The notes beneath the pieces are model-generated. The model was not told the origin of the DNA. It did not search any database and saw only the letters and a program-made list of their open reading frames with translations. From Turneriella sp. (GTDB lineage Bacteria > Spirochaetota > Leptospiria > Turneriellales > Turneriellaceae), in the NCBI GenBank assembly GCA_965279515.1, contig CBDIID010000003.1, positions 96,001-160,000 on the forward strand: a stretch of 64,000 nt of DNA, given 5' to 3'. Every line of letters starts with the position of its first letter. Position 1 is the first letter of the stretch. A program made the position numbers and the translations under genes. This document shows, piece by piece, positions 118 to 63,524 of the stretch.

Positions 118-326
118 AACGTGGATTTTACGCTGACGTTTTTTGACGCTTGTGTCATTTATTCAATCTGTAAAGCCGATTTGCGTCAAAAAATGTGGTC
201 GTAGCGGCTCGCGGCGGCGCGCGAAAACACACCTCCCGGTGTGCGCGTCGTCCGCGATCTTTGCCGCGGAGACCCGAGCACGCGAGGAGCTACGGCACCG
301 CAGCGGCGCAGCGCGTAAAATTTGTT
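118..326 (-). repeat. attC-like site R1 (subtype A, ggattttacgctgacg)
   Basis: AAC...GTT, outer stem ttttacgc/gcgtaaaa, inner hairpins. Confidence 0.85.
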
Positions 327-339
327 GTCTGTCGTAAGC

Positions 340-639
340 CTAGGCAATTTTTTTCAGGCGTGGCTCGACTGTATAGCCAAGCGCGGCCAATACCTTCAGC
401 ATAAAATCAGTGCTAATATCTGATCTGCTTCGATTTAACAATGCAGTAATTCTTGTTCTTGAAGTTCCAACTCGTTTAGCCAAGGTTTCATGCGTCAGCT
501 TGGACTTACTAAATAGGCCAGCGATATCGGAGTTCAACTTTGAACGAAATACCGCGTCGGCGGCTTCATATTCAGTCAAACCAATAGCCTCAAAAAGCTC
601 TTTTGGATTCTTCGCTGTGATTACATTTAATTTAGCCAT
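340..639 (-). CDS. HigA-like XRE/HTH antitoxin
   Basis: HTH (LTHETLAKRVGTSRTRITALL), overlaps upstream RelE-like gene. Confidence 0.8.
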   Translation of the reverse strand: MAKLNVITAKNPKELFEAIGLTEYEAADAVFRSKLNSDIAGLFSKSKLTHETLAKRVGTSRTRITALLNRSRSDISTDFMLKVLAALGYTVEPRLKKIA

Positions 640-967
640 TTGTAGCCTCCAAAATTTCTCTCAATCTCTTCTTGCCGATATCTATTTCGCGTTTCAATGT
701 CTTCTCTGATTTCTTGATAAAAGTGTGAAACACTAAGACTTTGCCAGCTACTTTGAGGTAGTAAAAAGCCCTGTATTGATTCTGCGAATCCTTAACCCTC
801 AATTCGGAGACACCTGGAGCGACAGAAGGCATTGGTCGCGAATCTGGCATACTGACGCTCTCTCCCAGTTGTAAGTCGAGTATCAAATCCCCCAGTTTTG
901 CCTTGATCTCCTTGGAGTAGGACTTAATCTCGGACAATGCTGCCGGATGGAAGTCAGCATCTTTCAC
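632..967 (-). CDS. RelE/HigB (Gp49-like) toxin
   Basis: SRPMPSVAPGVSELRV...YRAFY...HTFIKKSEKT motif; toxin-first HigBA order. Confidence 0.85.
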   Translation of the reverse strand: MKDADFHPAALSEIKSYSKEIKAKLGDLILDLQLGESVSMPDSRPMPSVAPGVSELRVKDSQNQYRAFYYLKVAGKVLVFHTFIKKSEKTLKREIDIGKKRLREILEATNG

Positions 968-1028
968 TGCTTAATGTATTGAAAACAATACATGGCGTCA
1001 AGAAAAACTCGCGTGGCTTATGACAGAC

Positions 1029-1243
1029 AACGTGGAATTTACCCGAAGTCGATAGTGCGTCGCACAATAAATGCAGTCTTCACTCGAAAGCCACGACTTG
1101 ATGCACTATCGATTTGCCGAAGGTCGCCTCGTTGCGCCCGACCAAACAAACGTCCCGTTTGTCGGGCGTCAACGACTCCTGGCGACCGAGGCCGAGCACG
1201 CCCGCCAACGGAGTGCGGGCGCGCGCAGCGGGTAAATTTTGTT
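1029..1243 (-). repeat. attC-like site R2 (subtype D)
   Basis: AAC...GTT; tcgatagtgc/gcactatcga hairpin. Confidence 0.85.
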
Positions 1244-1294
1244 GTGCGAAGGTTTTGCGCCATACGGTAGATGCTTAGCAAAAAATTCCATGGC

Positions 1295-1747
1295 CTAAAT
1301 TAGAATCTTAGTTTCAATGAAATCTAGTCTTTTGCTTAACAAATCTGCCATTTGACGGGTCGGGCGGGCATCCACCGGTATCAAGTCTTCGATTGATCTC
1401 CCTTCTCGCACGGCGTCTACCCAGCGACCCATTTCATACACATAACCAGAAAGAGCCGCCGCTGGCGTTTCGTTATCAATCGCTGATATATAAGCAGATG
1501 GCAAATCACCCACGACTACCCAAAGCCAATTATCGGCCTTGCCATTTGGCAATATCTCAAAGAGGAAAACGGCCACTATACCACCAACTCCCAGGCCAAA
1601 ATGCGCATCTTTGATTTTCTTACACCAAGAGTGGCTTCTCAGATAGTCACTAGCCTCGAGATACATCTTCTTAAGCATTTTAGTGTCTGCGGCGTCTTCC
1701 CCGCGCATCTTTTTGATCGGCACAATATTCTTAAATTCAGCTTTCAT
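1295..1747 (-). CDS. Hypothetical protein, DUF4826-like
   Basis: WLWVVVGDLPSAYI motif; likely start MKAEFK at 1747 because the longer ORF starts inside the IS end. Confidence 0.55.
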   Translation of the reverse strand: MKAEFKNIVPIKKMRGEDAADTKMLKKMYLEASDYLRSHSWCKKIKDAHFGLGVGGIVAVFLFEILPNGKADNWLWVVVGDLPSAYISAIDNETPAAALSGYVYEMGRWVDAVREGRSIEDLIPVDARPTRQMADLLSKRLDFIETKILI

Positions 1748-1812
1748 ATTTATTGCAAAAGTTCCATCAAACTCCAGCAAAATACCCTTCCACGATGAAA
1801 AATAAATGCGCA

Positions 1813-3147
1813 GGTTCAATATCAGAACATCGGTAACGAAAAGTCATCACGACATCGGTAACAGTTCTGCCTCAGGCTTTGCCGTGGTTTCCTCCTGATT
1901 TGGTGTAAACAAATAATTGTTCCGATCGATGTAGCCCAATAGCAGGCCACCGAAGTAGACGTCGATGCGCATGTCGGCGATAAACCGGAGCCCGATCGGG
2001 TAGCCGTTAAAAGAATTGCCGATAAATATCCGGTGCTGCTTGTAGTTGGTGTAACCGCGGTCATTTACCATGCGTACGATGCAATCCTCAGGGTAGGCGG
2101 GTACTACGTCGCCAATATACGGAATTTCAGATGGTAGGTAGAACTCTGATGGCGTCCTCATGCCCAGGGCTTCATGCGGTCGCACATTGTTGAAGTCTTC
2201 GCGCCACTGATCAAACGAAATCTGGTGAAGCTTTAGATCACCGCGAATGCGCCCCTGCAGTTCCGTGCGGATGTCTCTGTGCATACGCTCATGGCCACCA
2301 TTCTGGGCTGGCTTTCCCGGATCAATGCGGTCCAGAGAAATTCCCAAGGACAGCCACCAGACTGACAATTTTGTCAGGCCAAAGAGTCCCCACGATGATG
2401 CGAAAGGAGTTCCGTTGTCAGAGCGAATAATTTCCGGCAGACCATAGCGTTTGAAGAGTCTGGCAAAGTGTTGTTTTACATTGGAAATATTGCCCTTTTC
2501 CAGTATCTGTATCGACAGGATGTACTTACTGTACTCATCGCGAACTGTCAGAGGTTCGCATTTCTCTGCATGTGCAGTATACCACCACCCCTTGAAATCA
2601 ACCGTCCATATGTGATTGGGATGCGTCGCCTTTTCGCGAAGCATCAGCCTCTCTCCGGTTCTGCGGCGCTTCTTTCCTCTTGGCCTTGTCAGACCAGAGC
2701 GCGCCAGAAGGCGATCGACTGTAGGAACTGAAATATCGTCTTTGCGCTCCGGGTAAAGCCTGCAGAAAACCGCATAGATCTTCTTGGCTCCCCAGCGCGG
2801 CCTGTTATTCTTTATGCGAATAATATCGCAGATTGTTTCTTCGTCAGTGCGGTTCGGATTGCCTCCTGGTTTTCGTGACAACTCCGCCAATCCAGCTAAG
2901 CCTTTTTCCAGAAACCTTGCCTTCCACTTGTACCCTGTCTTGGTGCTGATGCCAAACTCGCGGCACAGCTCTGTGAAACTCTCTACGCCCTCCAGGGCGC
3001 GAAAGACAAAAGATCTTTTCTCTTCCATTTTGGTAACCTCTTTCCACGGCATTTGAGCCCCCTGCCGAAGGCAGGCAAAAGCTCTTTGCGAAGCAAAGTG
3101 TTACCGATGTCTTGATAGAAATGTGTTACCTATGTCGTGATAGTACC
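1813..3147 (-). mobile_element. IS481-family IS, copy 1 (1335 bp)
   Basis: Ends GGTTC.../...GTACC with doubled subterminal TGTTACCGATGTC repeats; near-identical to three other copies; flanks do not form a TSD. Confidence 0.85.
1847..3052 (-). CDS. IS481-family DDE transposase
   Basis: N-terminal HTH, rve core WTVDFKG...SDNG...NGGHERMH; single ORF. Confidence 0.9.
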   Translation of the reverse strand: MPWKEVTKMEEKRSFVFRALEGVESFTELCREFGISTKTGYKWKARFLEKGLAGLAELSRKPGGNPNRTDEETICDIIRIKNNRPRWGAKKIYAVFCRLYPERKDDISVPTVDRLLARSGLTRPRGKKRRRTGERLMLREKATHPNHIWTVDFKGWWYTAHAEKCEPLTVRDEYSKYILSIQILEKGNISNVKQHFARLFKRYGLPEIIRSDNGTPFASSWGLFGLTKLSVWWLSLGISLDRIDPGKPAQNGGHERMHRDIRTELQGRIRGDLKLHQISFDQWREDFNNVRPHEALGMRTPSEFYLPSEIPYIGDVVPAYPEDCIVRMVNDRGYTNYKQHRIFIGNSFNGYPIGLRFIADMRIDVYFGGLLLGYIDRNNYLFTPNQEETTAKPEAELLPMS

Positions 3148-3162
3148 CCGCCAATGTCACAC

Positions 3163-3371
3163 AATGTGGATTTTACGCTGACGTTTTTTGACGCTTGTGT
3201 CATTAATTCAATCAGGCAAGCCGATTTGTGTCACCAAATCTGCCCGGAGCGCCTCGCGGCAAAGCACAAAACAAGCGTCCCGCTTGTGCTTTGTCCGCGA
3301 TCTTCTGGCGCGCAGGGCCGAGCACGCGAGGAGCTACGGCACCGCAGCGAGCGCAGCAGGTAAATTTTGTT
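3163..3371 (-). repeat. attC-like site R3 (chimeric A/C, core AAC mutated to AAT)
   Basis: Left arm subtype A, right arm subtype C; outer stem mismatched. Confidence 0.75.
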
Positions 3372-3425
3372 GTCTGACGTTTCTAACCCGCAATATGCCG
3401 CCGTAGCCATGGAGGGCGAAGGCGG

Positions 3426-3722
3426 TTAGTGGAAAGGCTCCTGTAGAATCCTTGCCCCATGCCAAATGATACCTATTTCAACGCGATCTTCACGCACTCT
3501 GTAAATTATGCGATAATCTTGAAAGATGACCTCTCGATAGTCTTTATCAGGAAATTCCGGGACTTTTCGGCCCATTAAGGGATGCTGTTCCAGTTGCTTA
3601 ACGCGGATGTTTATTTCCCGGGCAAGTAACTTGGCATAGGGTAATGAAAACTGTTCAATATACTGGCAAATTGCTTCGAAGCTTTGTATTGCCGGTTCTG
3701 ACCACCTTATTCGGAAAGCCAT
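3426..3722 (-). CDS. RelE/ParE-family toxin
   Basis: IRWSEPA...PLMGRKVPE...YRIIYRV...IWHGAR. Confidence 0.85.
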   Translation of the reverse strand: MAFRIRWSEPAIQSFEAICQYIEQFSLPYAKLLAREINIRVKQLEQHPLMGRKVPEFPDKDYREVIFQDYRIIYRVREDRVEIGIIWHGARILQEPFH

Positions 3723-4039: not shown

Positions 4040-4254
4040 AACATGGAATTTACACGAGGTCGATGGTGCGCCGCACAATAATAGTGGGCTTATTTGGAAA
4101 GCCGCATATTAAGCACCATCGATCTGCCGTAGACCGCTCGTTGCGCCTGACCAAACAAACGTCCCGTTTGTCAGGCGTCAACGATCTTTGCGGTCGGAGG
4201 CCGAGCACGCGAGGAGCTACGGCACCGCAGCGAGCGCAGCAGGTAAATTTTGTT
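4040..4254 (-). repeat. attC-like site R4 (subtype D)
   Basis: AAC...GTT folded repeat. Confidence 0.85.
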
Positions 4255-4332: not shown

Positions 4333-5280
4333 GTGAGGTCTCATAATTGGCTTGCTGCCCAGCTGGGAAAGCAAAATAAGTTCTTTGTGAAATGCCTCGG
4401 TAAGCTGAGTTTCTTCTCCGTGCTGCTCTTAGTGGCGATACTGCCAATTGGTGCACAACTGACGGAGAAGGATTTCGATGAGCTTCTTGTGGCCGTAGAG
4501 GCGAGTAATTTTAAGAAACTCAAAACAATATTAAATAAAGAAAAGGCGAACGCGAAAGACAAGCACGGTAAACCTCTTTTACACCGAGTGAAAGATATTC
4601 GAATTGCTAGACTTTTTCTCGAAAACGGTAGCAATGTCAATGCAACGGATGGTTATTTCGAGACAACAGCATTGCATAAAGGACCAAGTATTCAGTTTGC
4701 CAAACTCTTTATTGAATTCGGGGCAGACGTAAATGCGAGAACTAGGTATAAGCAAACGCCTTTATATGGGGTTGATACAATTGAACTGGCGAAGTTACTC
4801 GTCGAAAACGGCGCAGACATAAATGCAAGAAATGATTCAGGATATACCCCCCTGCATGTGACGAATAGTATTGCAGTCGCTGCTTTTCTTATCGATAAAG
4901 GCGCAGATGTTAATGCCAGAACTGATGACGGATCGACGCCGATACATCGAGTTCAGGACGTTCGAAAGATTAATCTGCTGATTGAAAAGGGAGCCGATAT
5001 TAACGCTCAGAATAATGCAGGTGAGACCGTTTTGCACCTAGCCGCAAAAGAGGGTCAAACTATTCATGTTGATAAGATGGAAGCAGGTCATCATGCTCCA
5101 TCGCGAACGGACTGGACAGAAAACAAGAAAATTATTAGATTGCTTACTACCCACGGAATAAATGCCTTTTTGAAAAATGCAAAGGGAGAAACAGCTTTTG
5201 AAATTGCTTGGGATAAACAAGTTAAAGCCCTTCTAAAGGCTGCGGAAGAAAAATATCGGGCTCAAATAAAGAGCAAGTAA
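4333..5280 (+). CDS. Secreted ankyrin-repeat protein (inverted cassette)
   Basis: Several GADVNAR...TPLH repeats; signal-peptide-like N-terminus; start uncertain. Confidence 0.9.
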   Translation: MRSHNWLAAQLGKQNKFFVKCLGKLSFFSVLLLVAILPIGAQLTEKDFDELLVAVEASNFKKLKTILNKEKANAKDKHGKPLLHRVKDIRIARLFLENGSNVNATDGYFETTALHKGPSIQFAKLFIEFGADVNARTRYKQTPLYGVDTIELAKLLVENGADINARNDSGYTPLHVTNSIAVAAFLIDKGADVNARTDDGSTPIHRVQDVRKINLLIEKGADINAQNNAGETVLHLAAKEGQTIHVDKMEAGHHAPSRTDWTENKKIIRLLTTHGINAFLKNAKGETAFEIAWDKQVKALLKAAEEKYRAQIKSK

Positions 5281-5385: not shown

Positions 5386-5601
5386 AACGTGGAATTTACC
5401 TGAGGTCGATAGTGCGTCGCACAACAAATGCAGTCTTCATTCGAAAGCCGCGGCTTGATGCACTATCGATCTGCCGTAGGTCGCCTCGTTGCGCCCGACC
5501 AAACAAACGTCCCGTTTGTCGGGCGTCAACGAGTCTTCGCGACCGGAGGCCGAGGACGCGAGCCAACGAAGTGCGCACGCTCGCAGCGGGTAATTCTTGT
5601 T
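5386..5601 (-). repeat. attC-like site R5 (subtype D), IS1182 inserted at its GTT
   Basis: AAC...GTT; continuation gttaggcgcag resumes at 7339. Confidence 0.85.
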
Positions 5602-7338
5602 GAATCTGTAGAATAAGATTGCTTTGGCCTGAAAATTGCCGTAGTTACGTAGGTTATAATGCAACATATCGGGAGAAACCCATGCCGCGATTTAGATCAG
5701 AAAACAGAAGCCAGAATATGCTTGTGCCGGTCGATCTTTCGGATCAGATAATGAAGGGGACACTGGAAGCGACGATCAACGAAGCAATCAATCGGATGGA
5801 CATGACGCCGTTTACCCGCAGAATCAAGAACGACCTCACCGGTGCGCCGGCATATGATCCACGCTCGTTGCTCAAGGTGATTCTCTTTGCCTATTCGCGG
5901 GGGATTTTGTCTTCGCGCCGTATTGCCGATGCCTGCGAGAAGCACATTGTGTTCATGGCCTTGAGCGGTTATAGCAAGCCTAATTTTACCACAATTGCTG
6001 ATTTTATCTCTTCGATGGGGGCAGAGGTTAAGCAGGTTTTCATCCACATTCTGCGAGTCTGTGCGAAAATGGATTTAATCGGCGCGGAGCGCTTTGCGAT
6101 TGATGGGCACAAGCTTTCCTCGAGCGCCGCTAAGGAACATAGCGGTCGCTTTGCCGATTTCAAAAAGCGTATCGAAAAATACTCCGACCTGATCGGGGCT
6201 CTGGTCAGGCAGCATGCAGAAACAGATTTGAAAGAGAGAAAGGCAGCGTTGGCACAAAAGCGTAATCGGCTGACAGCGAAGAAAGAACGACTGGAGGGGT
6301 TTTTAGAATCCAACCAGGCTAAACGGGCAACGCGGAAATGCGGCAAAGAGCCGACGAGCAACGTGACGGATAACGAATCGGCCAAGATAATTTCATCGCA
6401 CGGGGTGATTCAGGGCTATAACGGTGTTGCGGCGACCGATGAGAAATGCCAGATTGTGATCGCGGCCGAAGCGCACGGTACTTCTTACGAGGGCAACCTG
6501 CTGATGCCAATGCTTGGTATAGCCGAAGAGAACATGGCGGATGTCGAAATAGATAAAACAATATCAGAGATACAGGTACTTGCGGACGCAAATTACTTCA
6601 ACGAAGCAAACCTGAAGGCTATGTCAGAGAAAGGGATCGATGCGTATATACCCGATCCGATGTTTCGCAAGCGCGATCCGCGGTTTGCGAATGCAGACGA
6701 CCACAAGGGTAAGACGCGCAGGAATGTCTATGACACGAAGAAGTCACAGGGCTTGCGCGGGTTCGGACAGGAGGATTTTATCCATGACAAGAACGGTGAT
6801 TTTTACATCTGTAAATCGAGTCACCGTCTGAACCGGTGGGCCAATCACGCGAGCAGTGGTGGCCGGGTTTACGGTATTGGAAAAATTGCGCACTGTCGGT
6901 CCTGTCCTTTGCGTAACGAGTGCATGCCCGGTGGTAATGCTCGGTCCAAGAAAATGATTACAGTCGCGAGCACAGATGCAGATAGCAGGCGCATGCCGTA
7001 TTCGACCGCGATGAAGGCTAAAATTGATTCACCAGAGGGCAAGGCGATCTATGCGAGGCGGTTGCAGATTGTGGAACCGGTGTTTGCGAACACCAGGGCG
7101 CATAAAGGGATGAATAAATTTACACTCCGCGGGAAGCGAAAAGTGAATATTCAGTGGCTGCTCTACATGTCGGTTCATAATCTTTCTAAGATTGCCAGGG
7201 CAATTCGTGCGAATCCGCAGTTACAGATAGCGTGATACGGCGTGGGAAATCAGTACTGAAGGAAAAGGCGATTTAGCGGGCAGAACAAAAGACGAACAGG
7301 CCTATTGCGCTACGAGCGGGGACTTTTTCTACAGATTC
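5602..7338 (+). mobile_element. IS1182-family IS
   Basis: Perfect 12-bp TIR GAATCTGTAGAA/TTCTACAGATTC; GTT duplicated at 5599-5601 and 7339-7341. Confidence 0.85.
5682..7235 (+). CDS. IS1182-family transposase
   Basis: GAPAYDPRSLLKVILFAY, AIDGHKL, LADANY, YARRLQIVEPVFAN motifs; RBS ggag before 5682. Confidence 0.9.
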   Translation: MPRFRSENRSQNMLVPVDLSDQIMKGTLEATINEAINRMDMTPFTRRIKNDLTGAPAYDPRSLLKVILFAYSRGILSSRRIADACEKHIVFMALSGYSKPNFTTIADFISSMGAEVKQVFIHILRVCAKMDLIGAERFAIDGHKLSSSAAKEHSGRFADFKKRIEKYSDLIGALVRQHAETDLKERKAALAQKRNRLTAKKERLEGFLESNQAKRATRKCGKEPTSNVTDNESAKIISSHGVIQGYNGVAATDEKCQIVIAAEAHGTSYEGNLLMPMLGIAEENMADVEIDKTISEIQVLADANYFNEANLKAMSEKGIDAYIPDPMFRKRDPRFANADDHKGKTRRNVYDTKKSQGLRGFGQEDFIHDKNGDFYICKSSHRLNRWANHASSGGRVYGIGKIAHCRSCPLRNECMPGGNARSKKMITVASTDADSRRMPYSTAMKAKIDSPEGKAIYARRLQIVEPVFANTRAHKGMNKFTLRGKRKVNIQWLLYMSVHNLSKIARAIRANPQLQIA

Positions 7339-8138: not shown

Positions 8139-8345
8139 AACGTGGAATTTACCTGAGGTTGAGTGACGCTTTGTTCAAGTTTGTGTTCTGTAAAGCCATT
8201 TTGCGTCACTCAATCTGCCCGGAGCGCCTTGCGGCAAAGCACAAAACAAGCGTCCCGCTTGTGCTTTGTCCGCGATCTTCTGGCGCGTAGGGCCGAGCAC
8301 GCGAGGAGCCACGGCACCGCAGCGGCGCAGCAGGTAAATTTTGTT
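8139..8345 (-). repeat. attC-like site R6 (subtype B)
   Basis: AAC...GTT; gagtgacgc/gcgtcactc hairpin. Confidence 0.85.
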
Positions 8346-9182: not shown

Positions 9183-9395
9183 AACGTGGAAAATACCCGA
9201 CGTTGATGGTGCGTCATGCAATAAATACAGGCTTATTTGGAAAGCCGCATACGGAGCACCATCAATGTGCCCGAAGCGCCTCTCTGAGGAGCGCGAAACA
9301 AACCTCTGGGTTTGCGCGACGAAGAGATCTGTGGCGCGGAGGGCCGAGCACACGACCCAGCGCAGCGGTCGTGCGCGCAGCGGATATTTTTTGTT
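9183..9395 (-). repeat. attC-like site R7 (divergent)
   Basis: AAC...GTT folded repeat. Confidence 0.8.
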
Positions 9396-10120: not shown

Positions 10121-10329
10121 AACGTGGATTTTACGCTGACGTTTTTTGACGCTCGTGTCATTTATTCAATTTGTAAAGCCGATTTGCGTCAAAAAATGTG
10201 GTCGTAGCGGCTCGCGGCGACGCGCGCAAACACACCTCCCGGTGTGCGCGTCGTCCGCGATCTTTGCCGCCCAGACCCGAGCACGCGAGGAGCTACGGCA
10301 CCGCAGCGGCGCAGCGCGTAAAATTTGTT
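10121..10329 (-). repeat. attC-like site R8 (A)
   Basis: AAC...GTT folded repeat. Confidence 0.85.
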
Positions 10330-10981: not shown

Positions 10982-11189
10982 AACGCGGAATTTACCTGAC
11001 ATTTGGTGACACTTATGTCATTAATTCAATCAGGAAAGCCGAATTGTGTCACCAAATGTGCCCGGAGCGCCTCGCGGCAAAGCACAAAACAAGCGTCCCG
11101 CTTGTGCTTTGTCCGCGATCTTCTGGCGCGTAGGGCCGAGCACGCGAGGAGCCACGGCACCGCAGCGAGCGCAGCAGGTAAATTTTGTT
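10982..11189 (-). repeat. attC-like site R9 (C)
   Basis: AAC...GTT; ttggtgacac/gtgtcaccaa hairpin. Confidence 0.85.
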
Positions 11190-11884: not shown

Positions 11885-12094
11885 AACGTTGGATTTTACG
11901 CTGACGTTTTTTGACGCTTGTGTCATTTATTCAATCTGTAAAGCCGATTTGCGTCAAAAAATGTGGTCGTAGCGGCTCGCGGCGACGCGCGAAAACACAC
12001 CTCCCGGTGTGCGCGTCGTCCGCGATCTTTGCCGCGGAGACCCGAGCACGCGAGGAGCTACGGCACCGCAGCGGCGCAGCGCGTAAAATTTGTT
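11885..12094 (-). repeat. attC-like site R10 (A)
   Basis: AAC...GTT folded repeat. Confidence 0.85.
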
Positions 12095-12189
12095 GGGCGC
12101 CGTTGTCGCTACGTAAAGCTCGGCCAAGGAGGGCCGAGCGTGAGCCTTTTCCCCTGATTATTCGAGAAAATGCTTTTTAGCCTGTTCAC

Positions 12190-12729
12190 ATGAAACAATT
12201 CGGAATTATGTCGCATTGGGGATGGACCATATTTCTTGTCATACTACTTGGGTGTAAAACCGCCCCGCCGGATTCGGTTGAAACGCTTAATGATGTTCAA
12301 TTAGAAGAGGACGAAGACCCCGCTGATTCAACGCGACTTATAATCAAGAAAATTGGACATACAGAGGCCAATGGCTTCAGACAATTAAGTGTACGAATCG
12401 AAATTTCTAGCTACGGCGAAGTTATGCAGTCTTTTCAAGAGCTCTTCATTACTTTTGGCTCGATTGAAAAGCTAGTCTTCGGTGAAAAGATTGCCTATTT
12501 CATTTCATGCGACAGGCAAGGGTCAACTTGGGCTGCCAAGAAAGCCATTATTGTATGGGATAAAGAAGGCATTTGGAGTATTTTGCCGCTGCATTTTGAT
12601 CGCGCCACGCTTCATAAAAATGAGAAGCGTTTCCTGATAGATGAGAAAATTGGCGTGATCGGCGAAAATCCTACTGGGAACCAGCTCTATGAGTTCAATG
12701 ATGGCTTGCTAACATTGTATAAACCCTGA
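12190..12729 (+). CDS. Putative lipoprotein (inverted cassette; same protein at 60030)
   Basis: VILLG-C lipobox-like. Confidence 0.75.
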   Translation: MKQFGIMSHWGWTIFLVILLGCKTAPPDSVETLNDVQLEEDEDPADSTRLIIKKIGHTEANGFRQLSVRIEISSYGEVMQSFQELFITFGSIEKLVFGEKIAYFISCDRQGSTWAAKKAIIVWDKEGIWSILPLHFDRATLHKNEKRFLIDEKIGVIGENPTGNQLYEFNDGLLTLYKP

Positions 12730-12811
12730 CTGACGTCATCCTGTTCAGCTTGCAAACAGGCGCGCAAGGATGCGCGCGAAATCGAAATTGATTTATGCGA
12801 CAATGGCGCCC

Positions 12812-15117: not shown

Positions 15118-15305
15118 AGCCGCCGTTACCGGATTCGCGCGGCTGGCGAACAACCCGAAGGTCAGCTATATACTGTATTTCGATCTTATTAGTCACCGAG
15201 GAGTTGTCGCCAGGATCAAAGGCGTAAGCAGCGAAATCTGGCTGTATTTTCTGATAAAAAATCCTCTTTTTCTCCCCTTCGGGCGCGAAGGAGGTAATGG
15301 TGGCT
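15118..15305. other. Gene-less cassette type A, copy 1
   Basis: 188-bp ORF-less cassette, five copies in window. Confidence 0.75.
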
Positions 15306-34558: not shown

Positions 34559-34767
34559 AACGTGGAAAATACCCGAATTGCGCCCCCGCGGCTGTAAAGT
34601 GTAAATAATCGCGGCTTTATGCGACTTTCGCGGGAGCGCATTTGCCCGTAGCGCCTCGCGAGCCCGCCAATGCAGGCCCACTGGCCTGCGGGCGCAGCGA
34701 TCTTCGGCGCGTAGGGCCGAGCACGCGACCCAGCGTAGCGGTCGCGGCGCAGCGGGTATTTTTTGTT
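34559..34767 (-). repeat. attC-like site R36 (E)
   Basis: AAC...GTT folded repeat. Confidence 0.85.
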
Positions 34768-34875
34768 GTCGGCAGTTGTTGGTTGATCGCTTGGGCACGG
34801 ATGCCCAAGCAGATGCTGGCTTCTCTAAGTCTTTCTTATGGATTTACCTGTCGTTCTGAGAATTCAGAATAATCA

Positions 34876-35301
34876 ATGATCGGTAGTTGCCTATGCGGCG
34901 AAATTGAGTTCAAATTAGAGAATAAGCAGTATAAGCTATACCAGTGCCATTGCTCACTATGCAGAAAGCAAAGTGGCGGCCCAGCCAATGCAGCAACTTT
35001 GGTGCTTGAGAATAAGTTCTCCTGGCAAAAAGGGAAAGAACACATTCGGTCTTATGTCAAAGCAACAGGCTTTAGATCTGATTTCTGTTCTAAGTGCGGC
35101 TCACCAGTTCCAAATAGGATCGGAAATACCGACTATATGTGGATACCTGCTGGGCTGCTGAAAACCTCTGATAAATTTGAAATTGTTGCCCATTTATTTA
35201 TCGGGTCAAAGGCGGCATGGGACTCGGCGCCCACTCATGGAGAAATCTTTGAGACTGGTCCAGGAGTTGAAGGTCTATTCAGGTTACTCGAAGGAGTGTA
35301 A
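34876..35301 (+). CDS. GFA (CENP-V/Mss4-like) family protein (inverted cassette)
   Basis: GSCLCG, CHCSLCRK, FCSKCGS zinc motifs. Confidence 0.9.
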   Translation: MIGSCLCGEIEFKLENKQYKLYQCHCSLCRKQSGGPANAATLVLENKFSWQKGKEHIRSYVKATGFRSDFCSKCGSPVPNRIGNTDYMWIPAGLLKTSDKFEIVAHLFIGSKAAWDSAPTHGEIFETGPGVEGLFRLLEGV

Positions 35302-35365
35302 TCTGCGATGTATGCACCGCCATGGATGGCGGTGGAGGAACACCTGCTTTCCAACAATTGCCGAC

Positions 35366-51298: not shown

Positions 51299-51505
51299 AA
51301 CGCGGAATTTACCTGACGATTGGTGACGCTAGTGTCATTAATTTAATCAGGAAAGCCGATTTGTGTCACCAATTGTGCCCGAAGCGCCTCGCGGCAAAGC
51401 ACAAAACAAGCGTCCCGCTTGTGCTTTGTCCGCGATCTTCGGCGCGTAGGGCCGAGCACGCGAGGAGCCACAGCACCGCAGCGAGCGCAGCAGGTAAATT
51501 TTGTT
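51299..51505 (-). repeat. attC-like site R52 (C)
   Basis: AAC...GTT folded repeat. Confidence 0.85.
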
Positions 51506-51999: not shown

Positions 52000-52207
52000 A
52001 ACGTTGGATTTTACGCTGACGTTTTTTGACGCTTGTGTCATTTATTCAATTTGTAAAGCCGATTTGCGTCAAAAAATGTGGTCGTAGCGGCTCGCGGCGA
52101 CGCGCAAAAGCACACCTCCCGGTGTGCGCGTCGTCCGCGATCTTTGCCGCGGAGACCCGAGCACGCGACCCAACGAAGTGGTCGCGGCGCAGCGCGTAAA
52201 ATTTGTT
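52000..52207 (-). repeat. attC-like site R53 (A/E mosaic)
   Basis: AAC...GTT folded repeat. Confidence 0.85.
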
Positions 52208-52269: not shown

Positions 52270-52740
52270 TTATTCTTCAAATTCTTCAGCAGGCCTGAGG
52301 CCGAGAATGAACGCCTTGAACGTCGGCGCAATCTGAATATCTTCCTTACATTCAACATCTATCCACGAAATACAGGGTTCCTTGCCATTACGGTAATCTA
52401 AAGTGATCCACCAATGTCCGTCACCTGTAAGTAGTACTTGCGCAGGAGGAAGGCCCCATTCTTCGATCATATAGGTAGAATGCATAATATTTTGCCCCGT
52501 CTTCATATCTGGATCAGGTTCAATCCCGAAAAGTTCGTCTAAGGGGATGTGATTCGGTGCCCAGGTTGTGCGTTCCTTTGTCGGGTATGCGAATCTTTTC
52601 GTGTAACCACCATTTTGACGTTGTAGTAATGATAGATATTCGGCCGGAAGTGTTACGCGAAGCGTTCTTTCTGCATGCTCTATCTTGTCCCGAGTTAGCG
52701 GCGGATGCGCCGGGTGGTCAGTATCCCAAAATGGTTCCAT
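52270..52740 (-). CDS. SMI1/KNR4 (SUKH) immunity-family protein
   Basis: IEHAERTLRVTLPAEYLSLL...NGG...GDGHWWITLDYR. Confidence 0.88.
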   Translation of the reverse strand: MEPFWDTDHPAHPPLTRDKIEHAERTLRVTLPAEYLSLLQRQNGGYTKRFAYPTKERTTWAPNHIPLDELFGIEPDPDMKTGQNIMHSTYMIEEWGLPPAQVLLTGDGHWWITLDYRNGKEPCISWIDVECKEDIQIAPTFKAFILGLRPAEEFEE

Positions 52741-52831: not shown

Positions 52832-53017
52832 AACGCGGGTTTTACCTTGACGTTTTGGCTTGTGGCGTCTTCGCCGCAAGCCAAAATGTGCCCGAAGCGC
52901 CTGCCCGAGCCCGCCAATGCAGGCCCACAGGCGGGCGGGCGCAGGGCATCTTTGGCGCGGAGTGGCCGAGCACACGACCCAACGAAGTGGTCGTGCGCGC
53001 AGCAGGTAAAACTTGTT
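52832..53017 (-). repeat. attC-like site R54 (short variant like R38)
   Basis: AAC...GTT folded repeat. Confidence 0.8.
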
Positions 53018-53951: not shown

Positions 53952-54158
53952 AACGTGGAATTTACCTGAGGTTGAGTGACGCTTCGTTCAACTTTGTATT
54001 CTGTAAAGCCATTTTGCGTCACTCAATCTGCCCGGAGCGCCTCGCGGCAAAGCACAAAACAAGCGTCCCGCTTGTGCTTTGTCCGCGATCTTTGGCGCGT
54101 AGGGCCGAGCACCCGAGGAGCTACGGCACCGCAGGGAGCGCAGCAGGTAAATTTTGTT
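53952..54158 (-). repeat. attC-like site R55 (B)
   Basis: AAC...GTT folded repeat. Confidence 0.85.
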
Positions 54159-54873: not shown

Positions 54874-55076
54874 AACGTTGGAATTTCGCGAGGTGATTGA
54901 CGCGTCAATAAAACTGGTCTTATATGAAGCAGCTTCGCGTCAATCATCTGCCCGGAGCGCTTCGCGAGCCTGCCAAAAACACACCTCCCGGTGTGGCAGG
55001 CGCAGCGATCTTTAGCGCGTAGGGCCGAGCACGCGACCCAACGGAGTGGTCGCGGGCGCAGCGCGAAATTCTTGTT
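54874..55076 (-). repeat. attC-like site R56 (BrnTA-linked variant)
   Basis: Same variant as R33. Confidence 0.85.
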
Positions 55077-55763: not shown

Positions 55764-55972
55764 AACGTGGATTTTACGCTGACGTTTTTTGACGCTTGTG
55801 TCATTTAATCAAATTGTAAAGCCGATTTGCGTCAAAAAATGTGGTCGTAGCGGCTCGCGGCGACGCGCGAAAATACACCTCCCGGTGTGCGCGTCGTCCG
55901 CGATCTTTGCCGCGTAGGGCCGAGCACGCGAGGAGCTACGGCACCGCAGCGGCGCAGCGCGTAAAATTTGTT
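55764..55972 (-). repeat. attC-like site R57 (A)
   Basis: AAC...GTT folded repeat. Confidence 0.85.
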
Positions 55973-56759: not shown

Positions 56760-56974
56760 AACGTGGAATTTACACGAGGTCGATGGTGCGTCGCACAATG
56801 AAGACTGGCTTATTTGGAAAGCCGCGTATCAAGCACCATCGATCTGCCGTAGACCGCTCGTTGCGCCTGACCAAACAAACGTCCCGTTTGTCAGGCGTCA
56901 ACGATCTTTGCGGTCGGAGGCCGAGCACGCGAGGAGCTACGGCACCGCAGCGAGCGCAGCGTGTAAATTTTGTT
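56760..56974 (-). repeat. attC-like site R58 (D)
   Basis: AAC...GTT folded repeat. Confidence 0.85.
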
Positions 56975-57497: not shown

Positions 57498-57705
57498 AAC
57501 GCGGAATTTACCTGACGTTTGGTGACACCTGTGTCATTAATTTAGATGGAAAAGCCGCCTTGTGTCACCAAATGTGCCCGGAGCGCCTCGCGGCAAAGCA
57601 CAAAACAAGCGTCCCGCTTGTGCTTTGTCCGCGATCTTCTGGCGCGCAGGGCCGAGCACGCGAGGAGCCACGGCACCGCAGCGAGCGCAGCAGGTAAATT
57701 TTGTT
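57498..57705 (-). repeat. attC-like site R59 (C)
   Basis: AAC...GTT folded repeat. Confidence 0.85.
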
Positions 57706-57738: not shown

Positions 57739-59253
57739 TTACTCCTGTGCTCCAAGTAAGTATCCAGAGGTAAGACCTTTGGACTTTAGCCAATCTTTAA
57801 CGGCGGTTTTATTGCCTGCAATAACGCTATCAATTTCGCTATCTTTCGGAAGGGACCAAAACTGAATACCTATTAGCCTGGAGAAAATATTGCGGATTTT
57901 GTCAAAATCTGTATCCGTCAATTCTCTATAGAATGGCCGCGCTCGCTCATCACTATCAGTAATTTCAAGTTTTGCACAGACTGCATCGCGAAATAATTCC
58001 GACCATGCCATGATGCTCTTTGAAGCGAAAATGCGTTCTAACTTGATTTGTTCCGTTTTTGTAGGGGAAGAATCTTTGTTCCAGTTAAAGAGAGCCAAAT
58101 CAAACAAAATATTCAATAACTGTATATTGTTTGAAAACTCAAGTTCACGTTTGTAACTATCGCTGGCCATATTGTCCGCAACCGGCTCAGTGTTCAAGAA
58201 GCACGAAAAAATAGATTTTGAGAGCATATCGACGGTAATTGGCTCCTCCATTGAGCCACGATTGCTGCTAGAAATAAGAGATTTCATCTTATTCGTTGGG
58301 TCATTCAGAACTGAATCGTACAGGTAGCTGCGAAACCTTTTGTTCCTTTCTGCACGCGTCATTGTTGTATCTTGAATCCTTTCTAAATATTCCAAGAAGC
58401 CAATTTCTGATTTGACTTGGCCGTCTTCGATGTTCTTGTATGCTTCGAAATCTTTGCCAAACTGTTGACCTAATTTTTGAATCAGGACTGGTGAAAAAAA
58501 TCTGGTTTGAGCAAACCTGTCATGGGCTGCAATGTTTGTTTGGTTTAGAATTCGTATTTCTGGGTTAACGTAGATTTTGCATTCTAGAATTTTCCGGCCA
58601 TTCCACAACAGAGCGGCGGCCTTATGCTGCCCATCAAACAGTAGTATTTTATCGCCTTTCACCCTGCCGATTGATGGCTGCAAAACCGGATAAATCTGAA
58701 AATGTCGGTATAATTCAAAAACTTTGTCAAAAATTAGATATCGAGGCTGCAAGCCAATAGATTGATCATCTTCATCATCGCTGTTGAGAATATCGATTGG
58801 CAAATTACCGTAAAAATATTTCCATTTCGTCAGAGGACACACATGCAGGTCAAAAGCATTATTAAACGAATGATTTTCTGCACTGATGATCTTGCCGCTT
58901 TCCTTAAGCGATACAGATTGGCCAAAATCTGTAATTAGCTTCTTTGTCTTAAAGAATTCAAGCAGGTGCTTTAATGTTTGTTTTTCACCGTTCTCGAAAA
59001 ATTCTTCGATTTGCAACTTAATTCGGAAGTCTTCAAGAGGCAGCATACCCTTTGCTTTGTTGTGAAATTCGCACATTGGTGCAATATTGTCCAGTTCGCT
59101 TTGACCACCAAGGGCATGGGCTCTAATGTGATCAAAATGGAGTTTGTCACTTTCGGGAATGTCATGATTATTGGCGAAGCATTTGCGACCAAATCTGGTA
59201 AGAATGGTCTTCTTCTCTTCTTCGTTTAGTTGTCTTTTTAAAGTTATAGCCAT
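57739..59253 (-). CDS. HNH endonuclease fused to ParB/DGQHR-like domain
   Basis: HFDHIRAHALGG...NIAPMCEFHNKAKG; LQPR; LLFDGQHKAAA. Confidence 0.8.
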   Translation of the reverse strand: MAITLKRQLNEEEKKTILTRFGRKCFANNHDIPESDKLHFDHIRAHALGGQSELDNIAPMCEFHNKAKGMLPLEDFRIKLQIEEFFENGEKQTLKHLLEFFKTKKLITDFGQSVSLKESGKIISAENHSFNNAFDLHVCPLTKWKYFYGNLPIDILNSDDEDDQSIGLQPRYLIFDKVFELYRHFQIYPVLQPSIGRVKGDKILLFDGQHKAAALLWNGRKILECKIYVNPEIRILNQTNIAAHDRFAQTRFFSPVLIQKLGQQFGKDFEAYKNIEDGQVKSEIGFLEYLERIQDTTMTRAERNKRFRSYLYDSVLNDPTNKMKSLISSSNRGSMEEPITVDMLSKSIFSCFLNTEPVADNMASDSYKRELEFSNNIQLLNILFDLALFNWNKDSSPTKTEQIKLERIFASKSIMAWSELFRDAVCAKLEITDSDERARPFYRELTDTDFDKIRNIFSRLIGIQFWSLPKDSEIDSVIAGNKTAVKDWLKSKGLTSGYLLGAQE

Positions 59254-59324: not shown

Positions 59325-59535
59325 AACGTGGAAAATACCCGAATTGCGCCCCCGCGGGTGTAAAGTGTAAATAATCACGGCTTTATGTGACTTTCGCGGG
59401 AGCGCATTTGCCCGAAGCGCCTCGCGGCAAAGCACAGAACAAGCGTCCCGCTTGTGCTTTGTCCGCGATCTTTGGCGCGCAGGGCCGAGCACGCGAGCCA
59501 ACGAAGTGCTCGCGGCGCAGCGGGTATTTTTTGTT
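59325..59535 (-). repeat. attC-like site R60 (E/B mosaic)
   Basis: AAC...GTT folded repeat. Confidence 0.85.
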
Positions 59536-59724
59536 AGCCGCCGTTACCGGATTCGCGCGGCTGGCGAGCAACCCGAAGGTCAGCGAGATACTGTAGTTCG
59601 ATATTATTAGTAACCGAGGAGTTGTCGCCAGGATCAAAGGCGTAAGCAGCGAAATCTGGTTGTACTCTCTGATAACAAATCCTCTTTTTCTCCCCTTCGG
59701 GGCGCGAAGGAGGTAATGGTGGCT
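59536..59724. other. Gene-less cassette type A, copy 5
   Basis: Copy of 15118-15305. Confidence 0.75.
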
Positions 59725-59934
59725 AACGTTGGATTTTACGCTGACGTTTTTTGACGCTTGTGTCATTTATTCAATCTGTAAAGCCGATTTGCGTCAAAAA
59801 ATGTGGTCGTAGCGGCTCGCGGCGACGCGCGAAAACACACCTCCCGGTGTGCGCGTCGTCCGCGATCTTTGCCGCGGAGACCCGAGCACGCGAGGAGCTA
59901 CGGCACCGCAGCGGCGCAGCGCGTAAAATTTGTT
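59725..59934 (-). repeat. attC-like site R61 (A; same as R10)
   Basis: AAC...GTT folded repeat. Confidence 0.85.
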
Positions 59935-60029
59935 GGGCGCCGTTGTCGCTACGTAAAGCTCGGCCAAGGAGGGCCGAGCGTGAGCCTTTTCCCCTGATTA
60001 TTCGAGAAAATGCTTTTTAGCCTGTTCAC

Positions 60030-60569: not shown

Positions 60570-60639
60570 CTGACGTCATCCTGTTCAGCTTGCAAACAGG
60601 CGCGCAAGGATGCGCGCGAAATCGAAATTGATTTATGCG

Positions 60640-61974
60640 GGTACAATATCAGAACATCGGTAACGAAAAGTCATCACGACATCGGTAACAGTTCTGCCTC
60701 AGGCTTTGCCGTGGTTTCCTCCTGATTTGGTGTAAACAAATAATTGTTCCGATCGATGTAGCCCAATAGCAGGCTACCGAAGTAGACGTCGATGCGCATG
60801 TCGGCGATAAACCGGAGCCCGATCGGGTAGCCGTTAAAAGAATTGCCGATAAATATCCGGTGCTGCTTGTAGTTGGTGTAACCGCGGTCATTTACGATGC
60901 GTACGATGCAATCCTCAGGGTAGGCGGGTAGTACGTCGCCAGTATACGGAATTTCAGATGGTAGGTAGAACTCTGATGGCGTCCTCATGCCCAGGGCTTC
61001 ATGCGGTCGCACATTGTTGAAGTCTTCGCGCCACTGATCAAACGAAATCTGGTGAAGCTTTAGATCACCGCGAATGCGCCCCTGCAGTTCCGTGCGGATG
61101 TCTCTGTGCATACGCTCATGTCCGCCATTCTGCGCTGGCTTTCCCGGATCAATGCGGTCCAGAGAAATTCCCAAGGACAGCCACCAGACTGACAATTTTG
61201 TCAGGCCAAAGAGGCCCCACGATGATGCGAAAGGAGTTCCGTTGTCAGAGCGAATAATTTCCGGCAGACCATAGCGTTTGAAGAGTCTGGCAAAGTGTTG
61301 TTTTACATTGGAAATATTGCCCTTTTCCAGTATCTGTATCGACAGGATGTACTTACTGTACTCATCGCGAACTGTCAGAGGTTCGCATTTCTCTGCATGT
61401 GCAGTATACCACCACCCCTTGAAATCAACCGTCCATATGTGATTGGGATGCGTCGCCTTTTCGCGAAGCATCAGCCTCTCTCCGGTTCTGCGGCGCTTCT
61501 TTCCTCTTGGCCTTGTCAGACCAGAGCGCGCCAGAAGGCGATCGACTGTAGGCACTGAAATATCGCCTTTGCGCTCGGGGTAAAGCCTGCAGAAGACCGC
61601 ATAGATCTTCTTGGCTCCCCAGCGAGGCCTGTTATTCTTTATGCGAATAATGTCGCAGATTGTTTCTTCGTCAGTGCGGTTCGGATTGCCTCCTGGTTTT
61701 CGTGACAACTCCGCCAATCCAGCTAAGCCTTTTTCCAGAAACCTTGCCTTCCACTTGTACCCTGTCTTGGTGCTGATACCAAACTCGCGGCACAGCTCTG
61801 TGAAACTCTCTACGCCCTCCAGGGCGCGAAAGACAAAAGATCTTTTCTCTTCCATTTTGGTAACCTCTTTCCACGGCATTTGAGCCCCCTGCCGAAGGCA
61901 GGCAAAAGCCCGTTGCGAAGCAAAGTGTTACCGATGTCTTGATAGAAATGTGTTACCTATGTCGTGATAGTACC
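60640..61974 (-). mobile_element. IS481-family IS, copy 4
   Basis: 4-bp TSD TGCG (60636-60639, 61975-61978) confirmed against empty copy near 12796. Confidence 0.92.
60674..61879 (-). CDS. IS481-family transposase
   Basis: Same protein as copy 2. Confidence 0.9.
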   Translation of the reverse strand: MPWKEVTKMEEKRSFVFRALEGVESFTELCREFGISTKTGYKWKARFLEKGLAGLAELSRKPGGNPNRTDEETICDIIRIKNNRPRWGAKKIYAVFCRLYPERKGDISVPTVDRLLARSGLTRPRGKKRRRTGERLMLREKATHPNHIWTVDFKGWWYTAHAEKCEPLTVRDEYSKYILSIQILEKGNISNVKQHFARLFKRYGLPEIIRSDNGTPFASSWGLFGLTKLSVWWLSLGISLDRIDPGKPAQNGGHERMHRDIRTELQGRIRGDLKLHQISFDQWREDFNNVRPHEALGMRTPSEFYLPSEIPYTGDVLPAYPEDCIVRIVNDRGYTNYKQHRIFIGNSFNGYPIGLRFIADMRIDVYFGSLLLGYIDRNNYLFTPNQEETTAKPEAELLPMS

Positions 61975-61990
61975 TGCGACAATGGCGCCC

Positions 61991-62198
61991 AACGTGGAAT
62001 TTACCTGACGTTTGGTGACACTTGTGTCATTAATTTAATAAGGAAAGCCAAATTGTGTCACCAAATGTGCCCGGAGCGCCTCGCGGCAAAGCACAAAACA
62101 AGCGTCCCGCTTGTGCTTTGTCCGCGATCTTCTGGCGCGTAGGGCCGAGCACGCGAGGAGCCACGGCACCGCAGCGAGCGCAGCAGGTAAATTTTGTT
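61991..62198 (-). repeat. attC-like site R62 (C)
   Basis: AAC...GTT folded repeat. Confidence 0.85.
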
Positions 62199-62221
62199 GT
62201 ACGTCGTGTTTGGGGATCAAT

Positions 62222-63226
62222 TTAGTAAGGTGTTCTCTTTATCCAGTTAAGGTATTCTGGGCTTCGTTGACTTCCGTAGTTTGTAAGGGCTTCATTAAGC
62301 CAATCTTTGGGGTTTGGCTTTGCTTGAATATTAAACTTCGGATCATCCATACATTCCGCGAAGTAATATACTATTTTACCCTTATGACCGAAAATGGTGA
62401 CGATAGTTCTGGTTAGTTCGCCCCGTTCATTTGGGTGATGTTTTTTGTAGCTTTCAAGGTAAACAAAATACTCTAAGAGTTTATCGTATTGTATCGGCGC
62501 AGCTTTACCGACGAAGATTTTTTGGGGTTTCAAGAAAGATAGGTTTCGCCTCGCTTTACTTTCAAAATATTTATCAATCGCAGCTATGTTGTCAGACATT
62601 AGGTGTTTCTTTATATTTTCAAAGCTATGAATATCATTCGAGTAGTGGTATATTACCTGTTGGGATTGACTTGTGTCAAAACTAAAAAAATTACTGTCCG
62701 GAAAAACGGGCTTCAGTATGTAGGTTTGAGTTTTCTTATTGGGATCGAAGAGTTGAGTTAAAATTTTCTCAGATTCTTGTTCTGTTACTGTAGGACCATC
62801 ATCCTTCGGAAAAAAGATGCGCACTAAACTGTATATTTTTGGGGCTTCGTACAAAATGTAGGCAACATATGTTATTTTGAACTGAGGATCATCTTTGCTC
62901 TTTAAGACGGCCGAAAGTCGCGTTTTGCCAATTAAAGTACTAATCTTAATTTCACTCACATGCGGCTCGGCCTTAGATAACCATTCTTTTCTCCGCTGTT
63001 CTAAATCATCGATGTGAAAGCCGCCATATTCTACCTCCACTAATGGCATTGAAAATTTAGCTTTATCGGTCATGCCTGCGCTGAGCTCAATGGCCTTTAG
63101 GTCATTTTCTGTTGCGAAATAACTGGCTACTCTCCTGTTCGGAAAATTCGGGACAAATTTATATTCAGCAATATCTTCAGACCACAAGGGAATCGAAGCT
63201 AAAAAAACAAGGACTATTGCTTTCAT
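62222..63226 (-). CDS. Hypothetical exported protein
   Basis: 334 aa, signal peptide MKAIVLVFLASIPLWS. Confidence 0.7.
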   Translation of the reverse strand: MKAIVLVFLASIPLWSEDIAEYKFVPNFPNRRVASYFATENDLKAIELSAGMTDKAKFSMPLVEVEYGGFHIDDLEQRRKEWLSKAEPHVSEIKISTLIGKTRLSAVLKSKDDPQFKITYVAYILYEAPKIYSLVRIFFPKDDGPTVTEQESEKILTQLFDPNKKTQTYILKPVFPDSNFFSFDTSQSQQVIYHYSNDIHSFENIKKHLMSDNIAAIDKYFESKARRNLSFLKPQKIFVGKAAPIQYDKLLEYFVYLESYKKHHPNERGELTRTIVTIFGHKGKIVYYFAECMDDPKFNIQAKPNPKDWLNEALTNYGSQRSPEYLNWIKRTPY

Positions 63227-63282
63227 ATTCGGTTAATAGATTTTAGAAAGCCTATGGTGAAAAGTAAAATAGTCAAGCCACG

Positions 63283-63299
63283 TATGTCGTGATAGTACC
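63283..63299 (-). mobile_element. IS481 terminal remnant (17 bp)
   Basis: TATGTCGTGATAGTACC equals the IS end, at the same offset from attC as full copies. Confidence 0.7.
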
Positions 63300-63315
63300 C
63301 CCAAACATGACGTAC

Positions 63316-63524
63316 AACGTGGATTTTACGCTGACGTTTTTTGACGCTTGTGTCATTTAATCAATTTGTAAAGCCGATTTGCGTCAAAAAATGTGGTCGT
63401 AGCGGCTCGCGGCGACGCGCGAAAACACACCTCCCGGTGCGCGCGTCGTCCGCGATCTTTGCCGCGAAGACCCGAGCACGCGAGGAGCTACGGCACCGCA
63501 GCGGCGCAGCGCGTAAAATTTGTT
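63316..63524 (-). repeat. attC-like site R63 (A)
   Basis: AAC...GTT folded repeat. Confidence 0.85.

Follow-up and report, generated by a model that had tools for sequence, protein, structure and literature searches.

We analysed a 64,000-nucleotide stretch of DNA from Turneriella sp. (hereafter the window; G000:C3:96001-160000, in a genome of 4.9 Mb with a completeness rating of 99.99%). The window carries part of a large array of gene cassettes separated by long attC-like sites. Judged from sequence comparison, the array probably belongs to a sedentary, integron-like gene-capture system, itself probably under SOS control. This system would be run by a tyrosine recombinase that lacks I2, the insertion specific to integron integrases (IntI), and that would act on folded single strands.

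Cassette arrays and the predicted fold of their sites

An initial annotation of the window had reported 63 repeats of ~185-215 bp, longer than the 57-141 bp given for attC sites in PMC5027507. A search with a profile trained on 50 window copies returned 63 full repeats measuring 186-217 bp from AAC to GTT, which bears out both the count and the excess over the attC range. The array continues past both window edges and as a whole spans C3:93004-169916, with 75 full sites. A second array (C3:3734382-3804588) holds 51 full sites in the same orientation as the first, bringing the two arrays to 126 sites. Every full copy in both arrays has one orientation, with one site per cassette.

118..63524, - strand (cassette 'top' strand): window part of the cassette array, 62 cassettes between 63 sites (profile search)
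118..326, + strand (folding 'bottom' strand): first of 63 attC-like four-way-junction sites (profile, folding, covariation)
Sites 1-13, folding strand +: 118-326, 1029-1243, 3163-3371, 4040-4254, 5386-5601, 8139-8345, 9183-9395, 10121-10329, 10982-11189, 11885-12094, 12812-13019, 13347-13553, 14091-14298
Sites 14-26, folding strand +: 14909-15117, 15306-15517, 16262-16469, 17044-17252, 17435-17642, 18352-18559, 19170-19376, 19565-19779, 20639-20824, 21679-21893, 22596-22801, 23575-23782, 25975-26182
Sites 27-39, folding strand +: 26880-27096, 27749-27955, 28460-28666, 29141-29351, 30051-30258, 31203-31417, 31979-32180, 32879-33095, 33815-34029, 34559-34767, 35366-35574, 36160-36345, 37118-37325
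Sites 40-52, folding strand +: 37876-38084, 38871-39083, 40189-40395, 42062-42270, 42907-43113, 43898-44113, 44570-44779, 45571-45787, 46705-46912, 48440-48646, 49645-49854, 50347-50556, 51299-51505
Sites 53-63, folding strand +: 52000-52207, 52832-53017, 53952-54158, 54874-55076, 55764-55972, 56760-56974, 57498-57705, 59325-59535, 59725-59934, 61991-62198, 63316-63524

As in canonical integrons, the cassettes are bounded by AAC and GTT and their R'' and R' segments are complementary within the cassette. The 7 nt after GTT were perfectly complementary to the 7 nt before the next AAC in 91 of the 124 cassettes (41/62 in the window). Complementarity to the left flank of the same repeat was found in just 6/126 sites (1/63 in the window). 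Matches across the cassette averaged 6.48, versus 3.89±0.12 in 5000 shuffles (maximum 4.37). The pairing extends further: position 8 is a G·T pair on the + strand in 120/124 cassettes, and positions 9-10 are paired in 96-97%. The initial annotation had held that only the AAC/GTT triplets are conserved in the core. RYYYAAC is matched by 10/63 window sites and GTTRRRY by 11/63 (18 and 19 of all 126 sites, whose lengths span 186-218 bp). Conservation nevertheless reaches past the triplets: the flanks pair across the cassette and carry a G at +5 and a G at +8 outside GTT in 125/126 sites each. The mobile unit thus delimited is the cassette, which extends between the AACs of successive sites.

327..1028, - strand: example cassette with a RelE/Gp49-like toxin and a helix-turn-helix antitoxin; the two ends pair over 7 nt, a G·T and a further 2 nt
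11885..12811, + strand: cassette copied at 59725 onward (copy interrupted by an insertion sequence, IS); body and left-hand repeat identical, outer flank and next repeat different
34559..35365, + strand: cassette with a twin in the second array at C3:3760205; 598-bp body (from 34768) plus left repeat, 100% identical

Duplicated cassettes, including a further pair at C3:3761010 and 3780677, keep the left-hand repeat, while the outer flank and the following repeat change, between arrays as well as within them. The 11885/59725 duplicate thus marks the mobile unit and places the crossover at its left AAC, which is the position found in integrons if + is taken as the bottom strand. The cassette found 100% identical in both arrays points to recent traffic between them.

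We derived a consensus fold from an alignment of 36 sites, 35 of them chosen under 88% identity from 152 (63 from the window and 89 from relatives; the window site at 3163 was replaced by that at 17435). The fold consists of an outer stem and three arms meeting at a four-way junction, which leaves 0, 0, 1 and 2 bases unpaired. Of the 46 pairs, 33 vary on both sides; 93% of the alignment cells pair, versus 30-48% in slid controls, and none of 500 shuffles equalled the result. This count favours the structure, since the latter was derived from the same alignment and includes four pairs added by hand, and it is inflated by relatedness. Arm 1 aligns poorly past its first 6 pairs, and its tip lies outside the count. 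The branched fold of the initial annotation, with pairing kept while the inner arms change, is thus upheld, with the correction that the CCGAGC...GCGCAGC block makes a third arm. The quoted outer-stem variants occur in 15, 20 and 10 of the 63 copies and the arm-1 variants in 15, 9, 7, 5 and 2; arm 2 is capped by TCCC in 49/63, and the near-invariant block [GC]CCGAGCAC is present in 59/63. The arms come as interchangeable types. Their 28 combinations among 63 sites suggest that sites recombine with, or convert, one another.

With DNA parameters, the + strand folded more stably than the - strand in 123 of 124 circular forms (-66.8 vs -62.7 kcal/mol) and in 113 of 124 linear forms. Sites folded beyond chance, with a mean z of -5.9 (20 of the 63 copies, 30 shuffles each). 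The annotation had left the choice between single-stranded DNA and RNA open; the strand that folds better lies opposite most cassette genes, which favours single-stranded DNA over RNA.

Folding brings together two similar 11-bp arms flanking a centre of 8 vs 6 nt. After AAC come a G·T pair (124/126), a 2-nt bulge and a second G·T pair (126/126). Three pairs further on lie the 11 bases of the L arm, TT(or AT)-AC-NN-GA-N-G-T, which cross the junction into arm 1. With GA as the anchor, the tenth L-arm position is G·T in 100/119 sites and T·T in 18 (7 copies were unparsed), and 34/119 sites have one extra L-arm base. The R arm has a G at 7 and at 10 in 125/126 sites each. A G·T pair stands at position 10 of each arm, on one strand. 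The unpaired central spacer and the L-box extrahelical bases of canonical attC sites are missing; the centre is G·T-paired with a 2-nt bulge, and a four-way junction is present.

A covariance model built from the sites matched 20/41 genomes. In other families of the order the sites measure 230-239 bp and have the same junction core. One such genome, G029, has 48 model sites, mostly of 230-238 bp; 11/13 folded sites of this type retain the junction, the CCGAGC/GCGCAGC core and the L-arm G·T, some of them with flanking pairs swapped, and two fold otherwise. Another spirochaete has a 90-bp site beside an insertion-less recombinase (L072:12756-12845) with the L arm and the CGCAG junction motif of the 209-bp sites; it is possibly a minimal form. 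Degenerate site copies are scattered outside the arrays of G000. Small clusters of decayed sites lie on C3 at 2805-2808, 2881-2885, 3059-3061, 3630-3634, 4810-4812, 1909 and 2929 kb, one of them 2 kb from the 366-amino-acid (aa) recombinase described below and adjoining a likely DNA methyltransferase gene. These clusters are perhaps off-target insertions.

The recombinase, attI-like sites and probable SOS control

The initial annotation had proposed an IntI-type recombinase, at the array end or in the genome, as a test. None was found: no protein of this genome or of 40 relatives exceeded the TIGR02249 cut-off (0/41 genomes; best score 161 vs 265), and no recombinase was found at the ends of either array in G000. 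The genome encodes four tyrosine recombinases (XerD, a XerC-like protein, a 301-aa orphan and a 366-aa protein), none of which carries the I2 insertion.

C3:2926093-2927193, - strand: 366-aa insertion-less tyrosine recombinase (profile and alignment; outside the window)
C3:2927215, - strand: GTTC-N7-GTTC box of the recombinase (outside the window)
C3:170663: attI-like 11-6-11 site, head of the window array (outside the window)
C3:3805389: attI-like 11-6-11 site, head of the second array (outside the window)
G000:C3:4316038, 2600652, 4249241, 2927215 and 3524939: GTTC-N7-GTTC boxes
G000:C3:2781225-2782127: 301-aa orphan tyrosine recombinase, kept in 7/13 congeners, no array link

The 366-aa protein aligns with VchIntIA and an IntI with a gap of ~39 residues at the insertion. 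The catalytic residues R225, K250, H316, R319, H342 and Y351 are invariant in 24 orthologues, and the best Foldseek match of the predicted model (pLDDT 84.5) is VchIntIA (2a3v). The distance from the first catalytic Arg motif to HxxR is 93 residues, versus 133 in IntI and 97-100 in Xer. The protein scored 196 bits against NF040815, whose cut-off is 220, and so falls outside this Xer family. In place of the insertion it has a helical N-terminal extension, for which we found no Pfam match, no HARP domain and Atlas scores of at most 0.78.

Each array of G000 has an attI-like site at the end from which most genes read, and the left arm of this site completes the last cassette. In relatives, the gene of the insertion-less recombinase is transcribed divergently, and the attI-like site lies ~100-350 bp upstream of it. 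Orthologues of the 366-aa protein are present in 12/13 congeners, and an 11-6-11 site lies just upstream in 8 of the 12 (G002, G003, G004, G006, G007, G011, G012 and G013). Such a site was also found in G028, G029 and G031, with a chance expectation of 0.06 per 850 bp; the match in G034 looks like chance. The pattern was not found upstream of the orthologue in G001 and G005; in G008 and G010 the sequence available upstream is short or absent. Arrays adjoin the orthologue directly and divergently in G002 (40 sites in 40 kb), G003, G005, G007, G011, G012 and G013. A scan for a Pc promoter near attI gave 1 weak match vs 0.8 expected by chance, and a simple pattern found no dif-like site in the genome.

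Sites and recombinase also occur together across the order. Among 33 genomes, whose kinship makes them non-independent, 17 had both site and orthologue (E<1e-38), 11 neither, 3 the orthologue only and 2 the site only (both 83% complete); 11 of the 13 genomes with Xer-level matches alone had no sites. At class level (family f8), distant orthologues were found in 4/7 relatives and a site match in 0/7; the flanks searched in three of them gave no repeat match, and G039 has one cassette-end signature. In a quick tree of 108 proteins (seven IntI rows mislabelled by pattern), which did not order the IntI and insertion-less groups, the orthologue clade followed host taxonomy (SH-aLRT 97) and was separate from both IntI (98) and the Xer side. 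Most of 80 distant loci have no array and a minority show a cassette signature, the alphaproteobacterial ones next to none, so that a missing I2 does not imply an array. Three Bacteroidota loci (L080, L081 and L091) have co-oriented arrays downstream of the recombinase with sites of 110-227 bp, and the position-8 signature recurs in L081 and L091.

SOS control by LexA is common in integrons without defining them, and a common upstream box speaks for it here. A GTTC-N7-GTTC box stands just before the recombinase start in 10 of the 13 genus genomes that have the gene. In G000 the same 15-mer stands before lexA, recA and a radical SAM gene of the PA0069 family, and a looser pattern finds one more site; lexA was called from a full-length TIGR00498 match under the cut-off. 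The box looks like the SOS box of the genus and is a candidate LexA operator. Direct-repeat SOS boxes of this sort are known from Alphaproteobacteria. The box differs from the Leptospira box in PMC3789691 and from the gamma/beta-proteobacterial type, which PMC3108266 gives as the sole LexA box reported at intI.

By GC skew, both arrays lie in the replichore where the + strand is G-rich, and the folding strand would therefore be the lagging-strand template. Array flanks in relatives agree on the G-rich strand (3/4 in G002, 3/4 in G011 and 2/2 in G005). The dnaA gene (G000:C3:4282729-4284039) sits mid-replichore, 1.4 Mb from the GC-skew minimum.

Proposed mechanism and competing explanations

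In the mechanism that we propose, DNA damage would lead to LexA cleavage and the recombinase would be made. The bottom strand, as lagging-strand template, would fold once single-stranded and rebuild a two-arm site with the R arm AA-N7-T·G, a centre of 8 vs 6 nt (2-nt bulge) and the L arm TT-N7-G·T. The L arm would begin in the outer stem and pass through the junction into arm 1, with the partner strand extruding arms 2 and 3. Cleavage at AA|C would fall to the monomer on the R arm, and one strand would be exchanged; replication would then resolve the junction, as partner sites share only AAC(GT) and have no common 6-bp overlap. The bulge and the extruded arms probably replace the extrahelical bases and I2 of integrons in strand choice and in blocking a second exchange. 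A rearrangement in G000 would have separated the recombinase from the two attI-headed arrays, which it would now serve in trans.

Several observations weigh against this mechanism. The energy difference between strands is modest, with an AAC:GTT pairing probability of 0.68 vs 0.50, and the + strand is G-rich in the array region regardless. About one third of the cassettes (20/63, by longest open reading frame, ORF) face the opposite way. In G000 and its sister G001 the 366-aa gene is unlinked to an array and has no attI beside it; the array of G005 adjoins the orthologue, yet no attI pattern was found there, and the G003 orthologue is split over two frames. Among the joints listed for four contig sets (depth ~3-6) there was no circular cassette and no attI excision joint, and the joints seen are explicable by repeats. 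The replichore call rests on GC skew, with dnaA off the skew minimum and a weak gene-strand bias. If correct, it goes against the pattern in PMC5371416, where large chromosomal integrons mostly have the bottom strand on the leading template (25/30) and lagging-oriented integrons have at most 22 cassettes. Finally, I2 is held necessary for cassette capture in PMC7790495.

The same recombinase and cassettes could work by conventional double-strand recombination on duplex or cruciform DNA, with the long fold serving another purpose such as cassette genesis or RNA processing. The Xer-like spacing of the catalytic motifs, the plain 11-6-11 duplex at attI and the small energy preference between strands all fit this alternative. 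Double-strand exchange by tyrosine recombinases, however, requires identical overlaps, and here the centre varies from partner to partner (13 variants in 126 sites, with attI spacers different again). Moreover, the duplex site offers a single arm of the partner geometry, on the AAC side; the 6-nt centre and the second arm arise only on folding, and the G·T pairs of the two arms share one strand and have the same position. We regard a double-strand route as unlikely. [quoted passage not shown] The lack of a recombinase adjoining either array in G000 fits this, and CALINs of up to 114 sites are reported in 10.1101/030866. Against it, all 41 genomes lack an IntI above cut-off, and relatives have the insertion-less gene at their attI end. 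Cassettes found identical in the two arrays point to recent movement, and the sites exceed the attC size range and have no classical unpaired spacer.

There is also little probability, in our estimate, that the host XerC/XerD, as on single-stranded phage DNA, or the 301-aa orphan (C3:2781225) recombine the folded sites. The genome does encode XerD and a XerC-like protein, and the site geometry resembles the 11-6-11 geometry of dif. The arm sequences of the sites vary freely, which those of dif do not, and Xer-level matches alone go without sites in 11/13 genomes of the order. In G002 and G011 the orphan is distant from the arrays, its G002 copy has a stop, and this query did not find it in the array-bearing G005 and G013. 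This alternative also has in its favour that folded single strands can serve as Xer substrates (PMC5027507, PMC7790495). Least probable of all is a miniature inverted-repeat transposable element (MITE), a repetitive extragenic palindrome (REP)-like element or a structured non-coding RNA between genes. The conserved fold is strong, degenerate copies are scattered, and many subfamilies have mixed arms, as such elements might. The flanks of the repeats, however, pair with those of the next repeat and are not duplicated targets, which largely refutes this explanation. Full copies all share one orientation with one per cassette, the arrays end in an attI-like site, and the repeats have no match in Rfam. 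The initial annotation had taken a missing IntI as favouring a MITE/REP origin; this did not hold, since the arrays are tied to an I2-less tyrosine recombinase.

Taken together, these results favour an integron-like system working on folded single strands. The distinct integron class of the initial annotation thus stands in its attC-like boundaries and integron-like character, tied to an insertion-less recombinase and not to IntI. Whether it amounts to a second, widespread integron class, in which asymmetry would come from the substrate (L-arm four-way junction, 2-nt bulge and mirrored G·T pairs), we judge evenly balanced. The same reading, at the same odds, has the class grow to superintegron size (126 sites here) under a LexA control of its own.

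Cassette content and relation to known integrons

The longest ORF per unit lies on the - strand in 41/63 units and on the + strand in 20/63; 2 have no ORF. Toxin-antitoxin domains occur in 11 window cassettes. Among 70 cassette proteins scanned, 39 had no Pfam match (8 of the 78 called ORFs were excluded as repeats, spurious or running off the window), and PADLOC gave 2 generic matches on 62 proteins. The ORFs at 30268-31188, 52270-52740, 38119-38820, 57739-59253 and 4333-5280 encode, respectively, a NADase-translocation-like domain, SMI1/KNR4, R2K ATP-grasp, HNH and ankyrin repeats. The commonest cassette is 188 bp long, with 13 copies over both arrays (91-100% identity), and may represent a promoter or small-RNA cassette.

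15118..15305, no strand assigned: 188-bp cassette, no convincing ORF; also at 17253-17434, 19377-19564, 46913 (with IS) and 59536-59724, and 8 more copies in array 2
1810..3150, - strand: IS481-like element (401-aa rve transposase, 1847-3052); more copies at 40708-42045, 47086-48420 and 60637-61972

Array 2 has further IS481-like copies near 3741.8, 3750.3 and 3766.3 kb of C3. Within cassettes, these elements end 15-16 bp from the cassette-start AAC in 7/7 cases, which suggests that the element targets the R arm. Another copy (C3:89395-90770) cuts a site at the far end of the window array, and two other DDE transposases of the DUF772 type disrupt cassettes at 5619-7235 and 24735-25826 of the window.

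The system shares many features with sedentary chromosomal integrons such as the Vibrio cholerae superintegron: a long array, one-gene and toxin-antitoxin cassettes, AAC/GTT triplets, complementary ends within the cassette, a better-folding bottom strand, attI at the head, a divergent recombinase, an SOS box (a candidate here) and vertical inheritance. Unlike them, its recombinase has no I2, is ~39 residues shorter there and has an N-terminal extension. Its sites are 186-239 bp long instead of 57-141 bp, with G·T pairs and a 2-nt bulge in place of an unpaired central spacer; R pairing reaches 10 nt past the triplet with a fixed G·T, and a conserved, covarying four-way junction lies within the L arm. 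By GC skew the bottom strand is on the lagging template, and the box is of the GTTC-N7-GTTC type. The initial annotation had set branching itself against known attC sites; branched terminal structures are, however, already reported for chromosomal attC (PMC5027507, PMC5371416). The difference from known attC lies in size, the conserved junction and the absent unpaired spacer, not in branching as such.

Like CALINs, neither array in G000 has an adjoining recombinase; unlike them, both keep attI-like heads, and the cognate enzyme is intact elsewhere and would not be scored as IntI. The I2-less core and the 11-6-11 geometry are shared with XerA/XerCD-dif and with hijackers of Xer on single strands such as CTX phage. 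Here the enzyme forms a separate clade, the arms are variable, more than 100 sites stand in arrays, and the genome has its own XerD and XerC-like proteins. Treponema integrons (PMC3607928) are likewise chromosomal cassette arrays in a spirochaete, but these have IntI genes, attC sites with R and L boxes and a protruding G, and a co-oriented integrase; the abstract of that paper calls Treponema the sole spirochaete clade bearing integrons. The Turneriella system resembles a sedentary integron in its working but falls outside the definitions of IntI and attC, and so we do not file it as a member. We found no published description of such a system in the full-text literature searched, which mostly excludes subscription journals; supplements might list such arrays.

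I2 is seen as the innovation that defines integron integrases and that they cannot do without (PMC7790495, PMC9668308), and its presence is a requirement in integron surveys. If our reading is true, arrays of this kind hold a cassette pool missed by IntI-based searches, which would open a large uncounted cassette reservoir; 39 of the 70 window proteins scanned lack a Pfam match. The origin of single-strand recombination has been approached by back-evolving IntI1 (PMC7790495); a complete, I2-less platform of superintegron size would make it testable with a natural enzyme. It would also add a structured single-stranded substrate, the four-way junction, to site-specific recombination. The class is not confined to the window; the case described here is very large, complete and amenable to experiment, and the anatomy of its substrate is defined. 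If the recombinase clade branched before I2 was gained, single-strand cassette recombination would predate I2.

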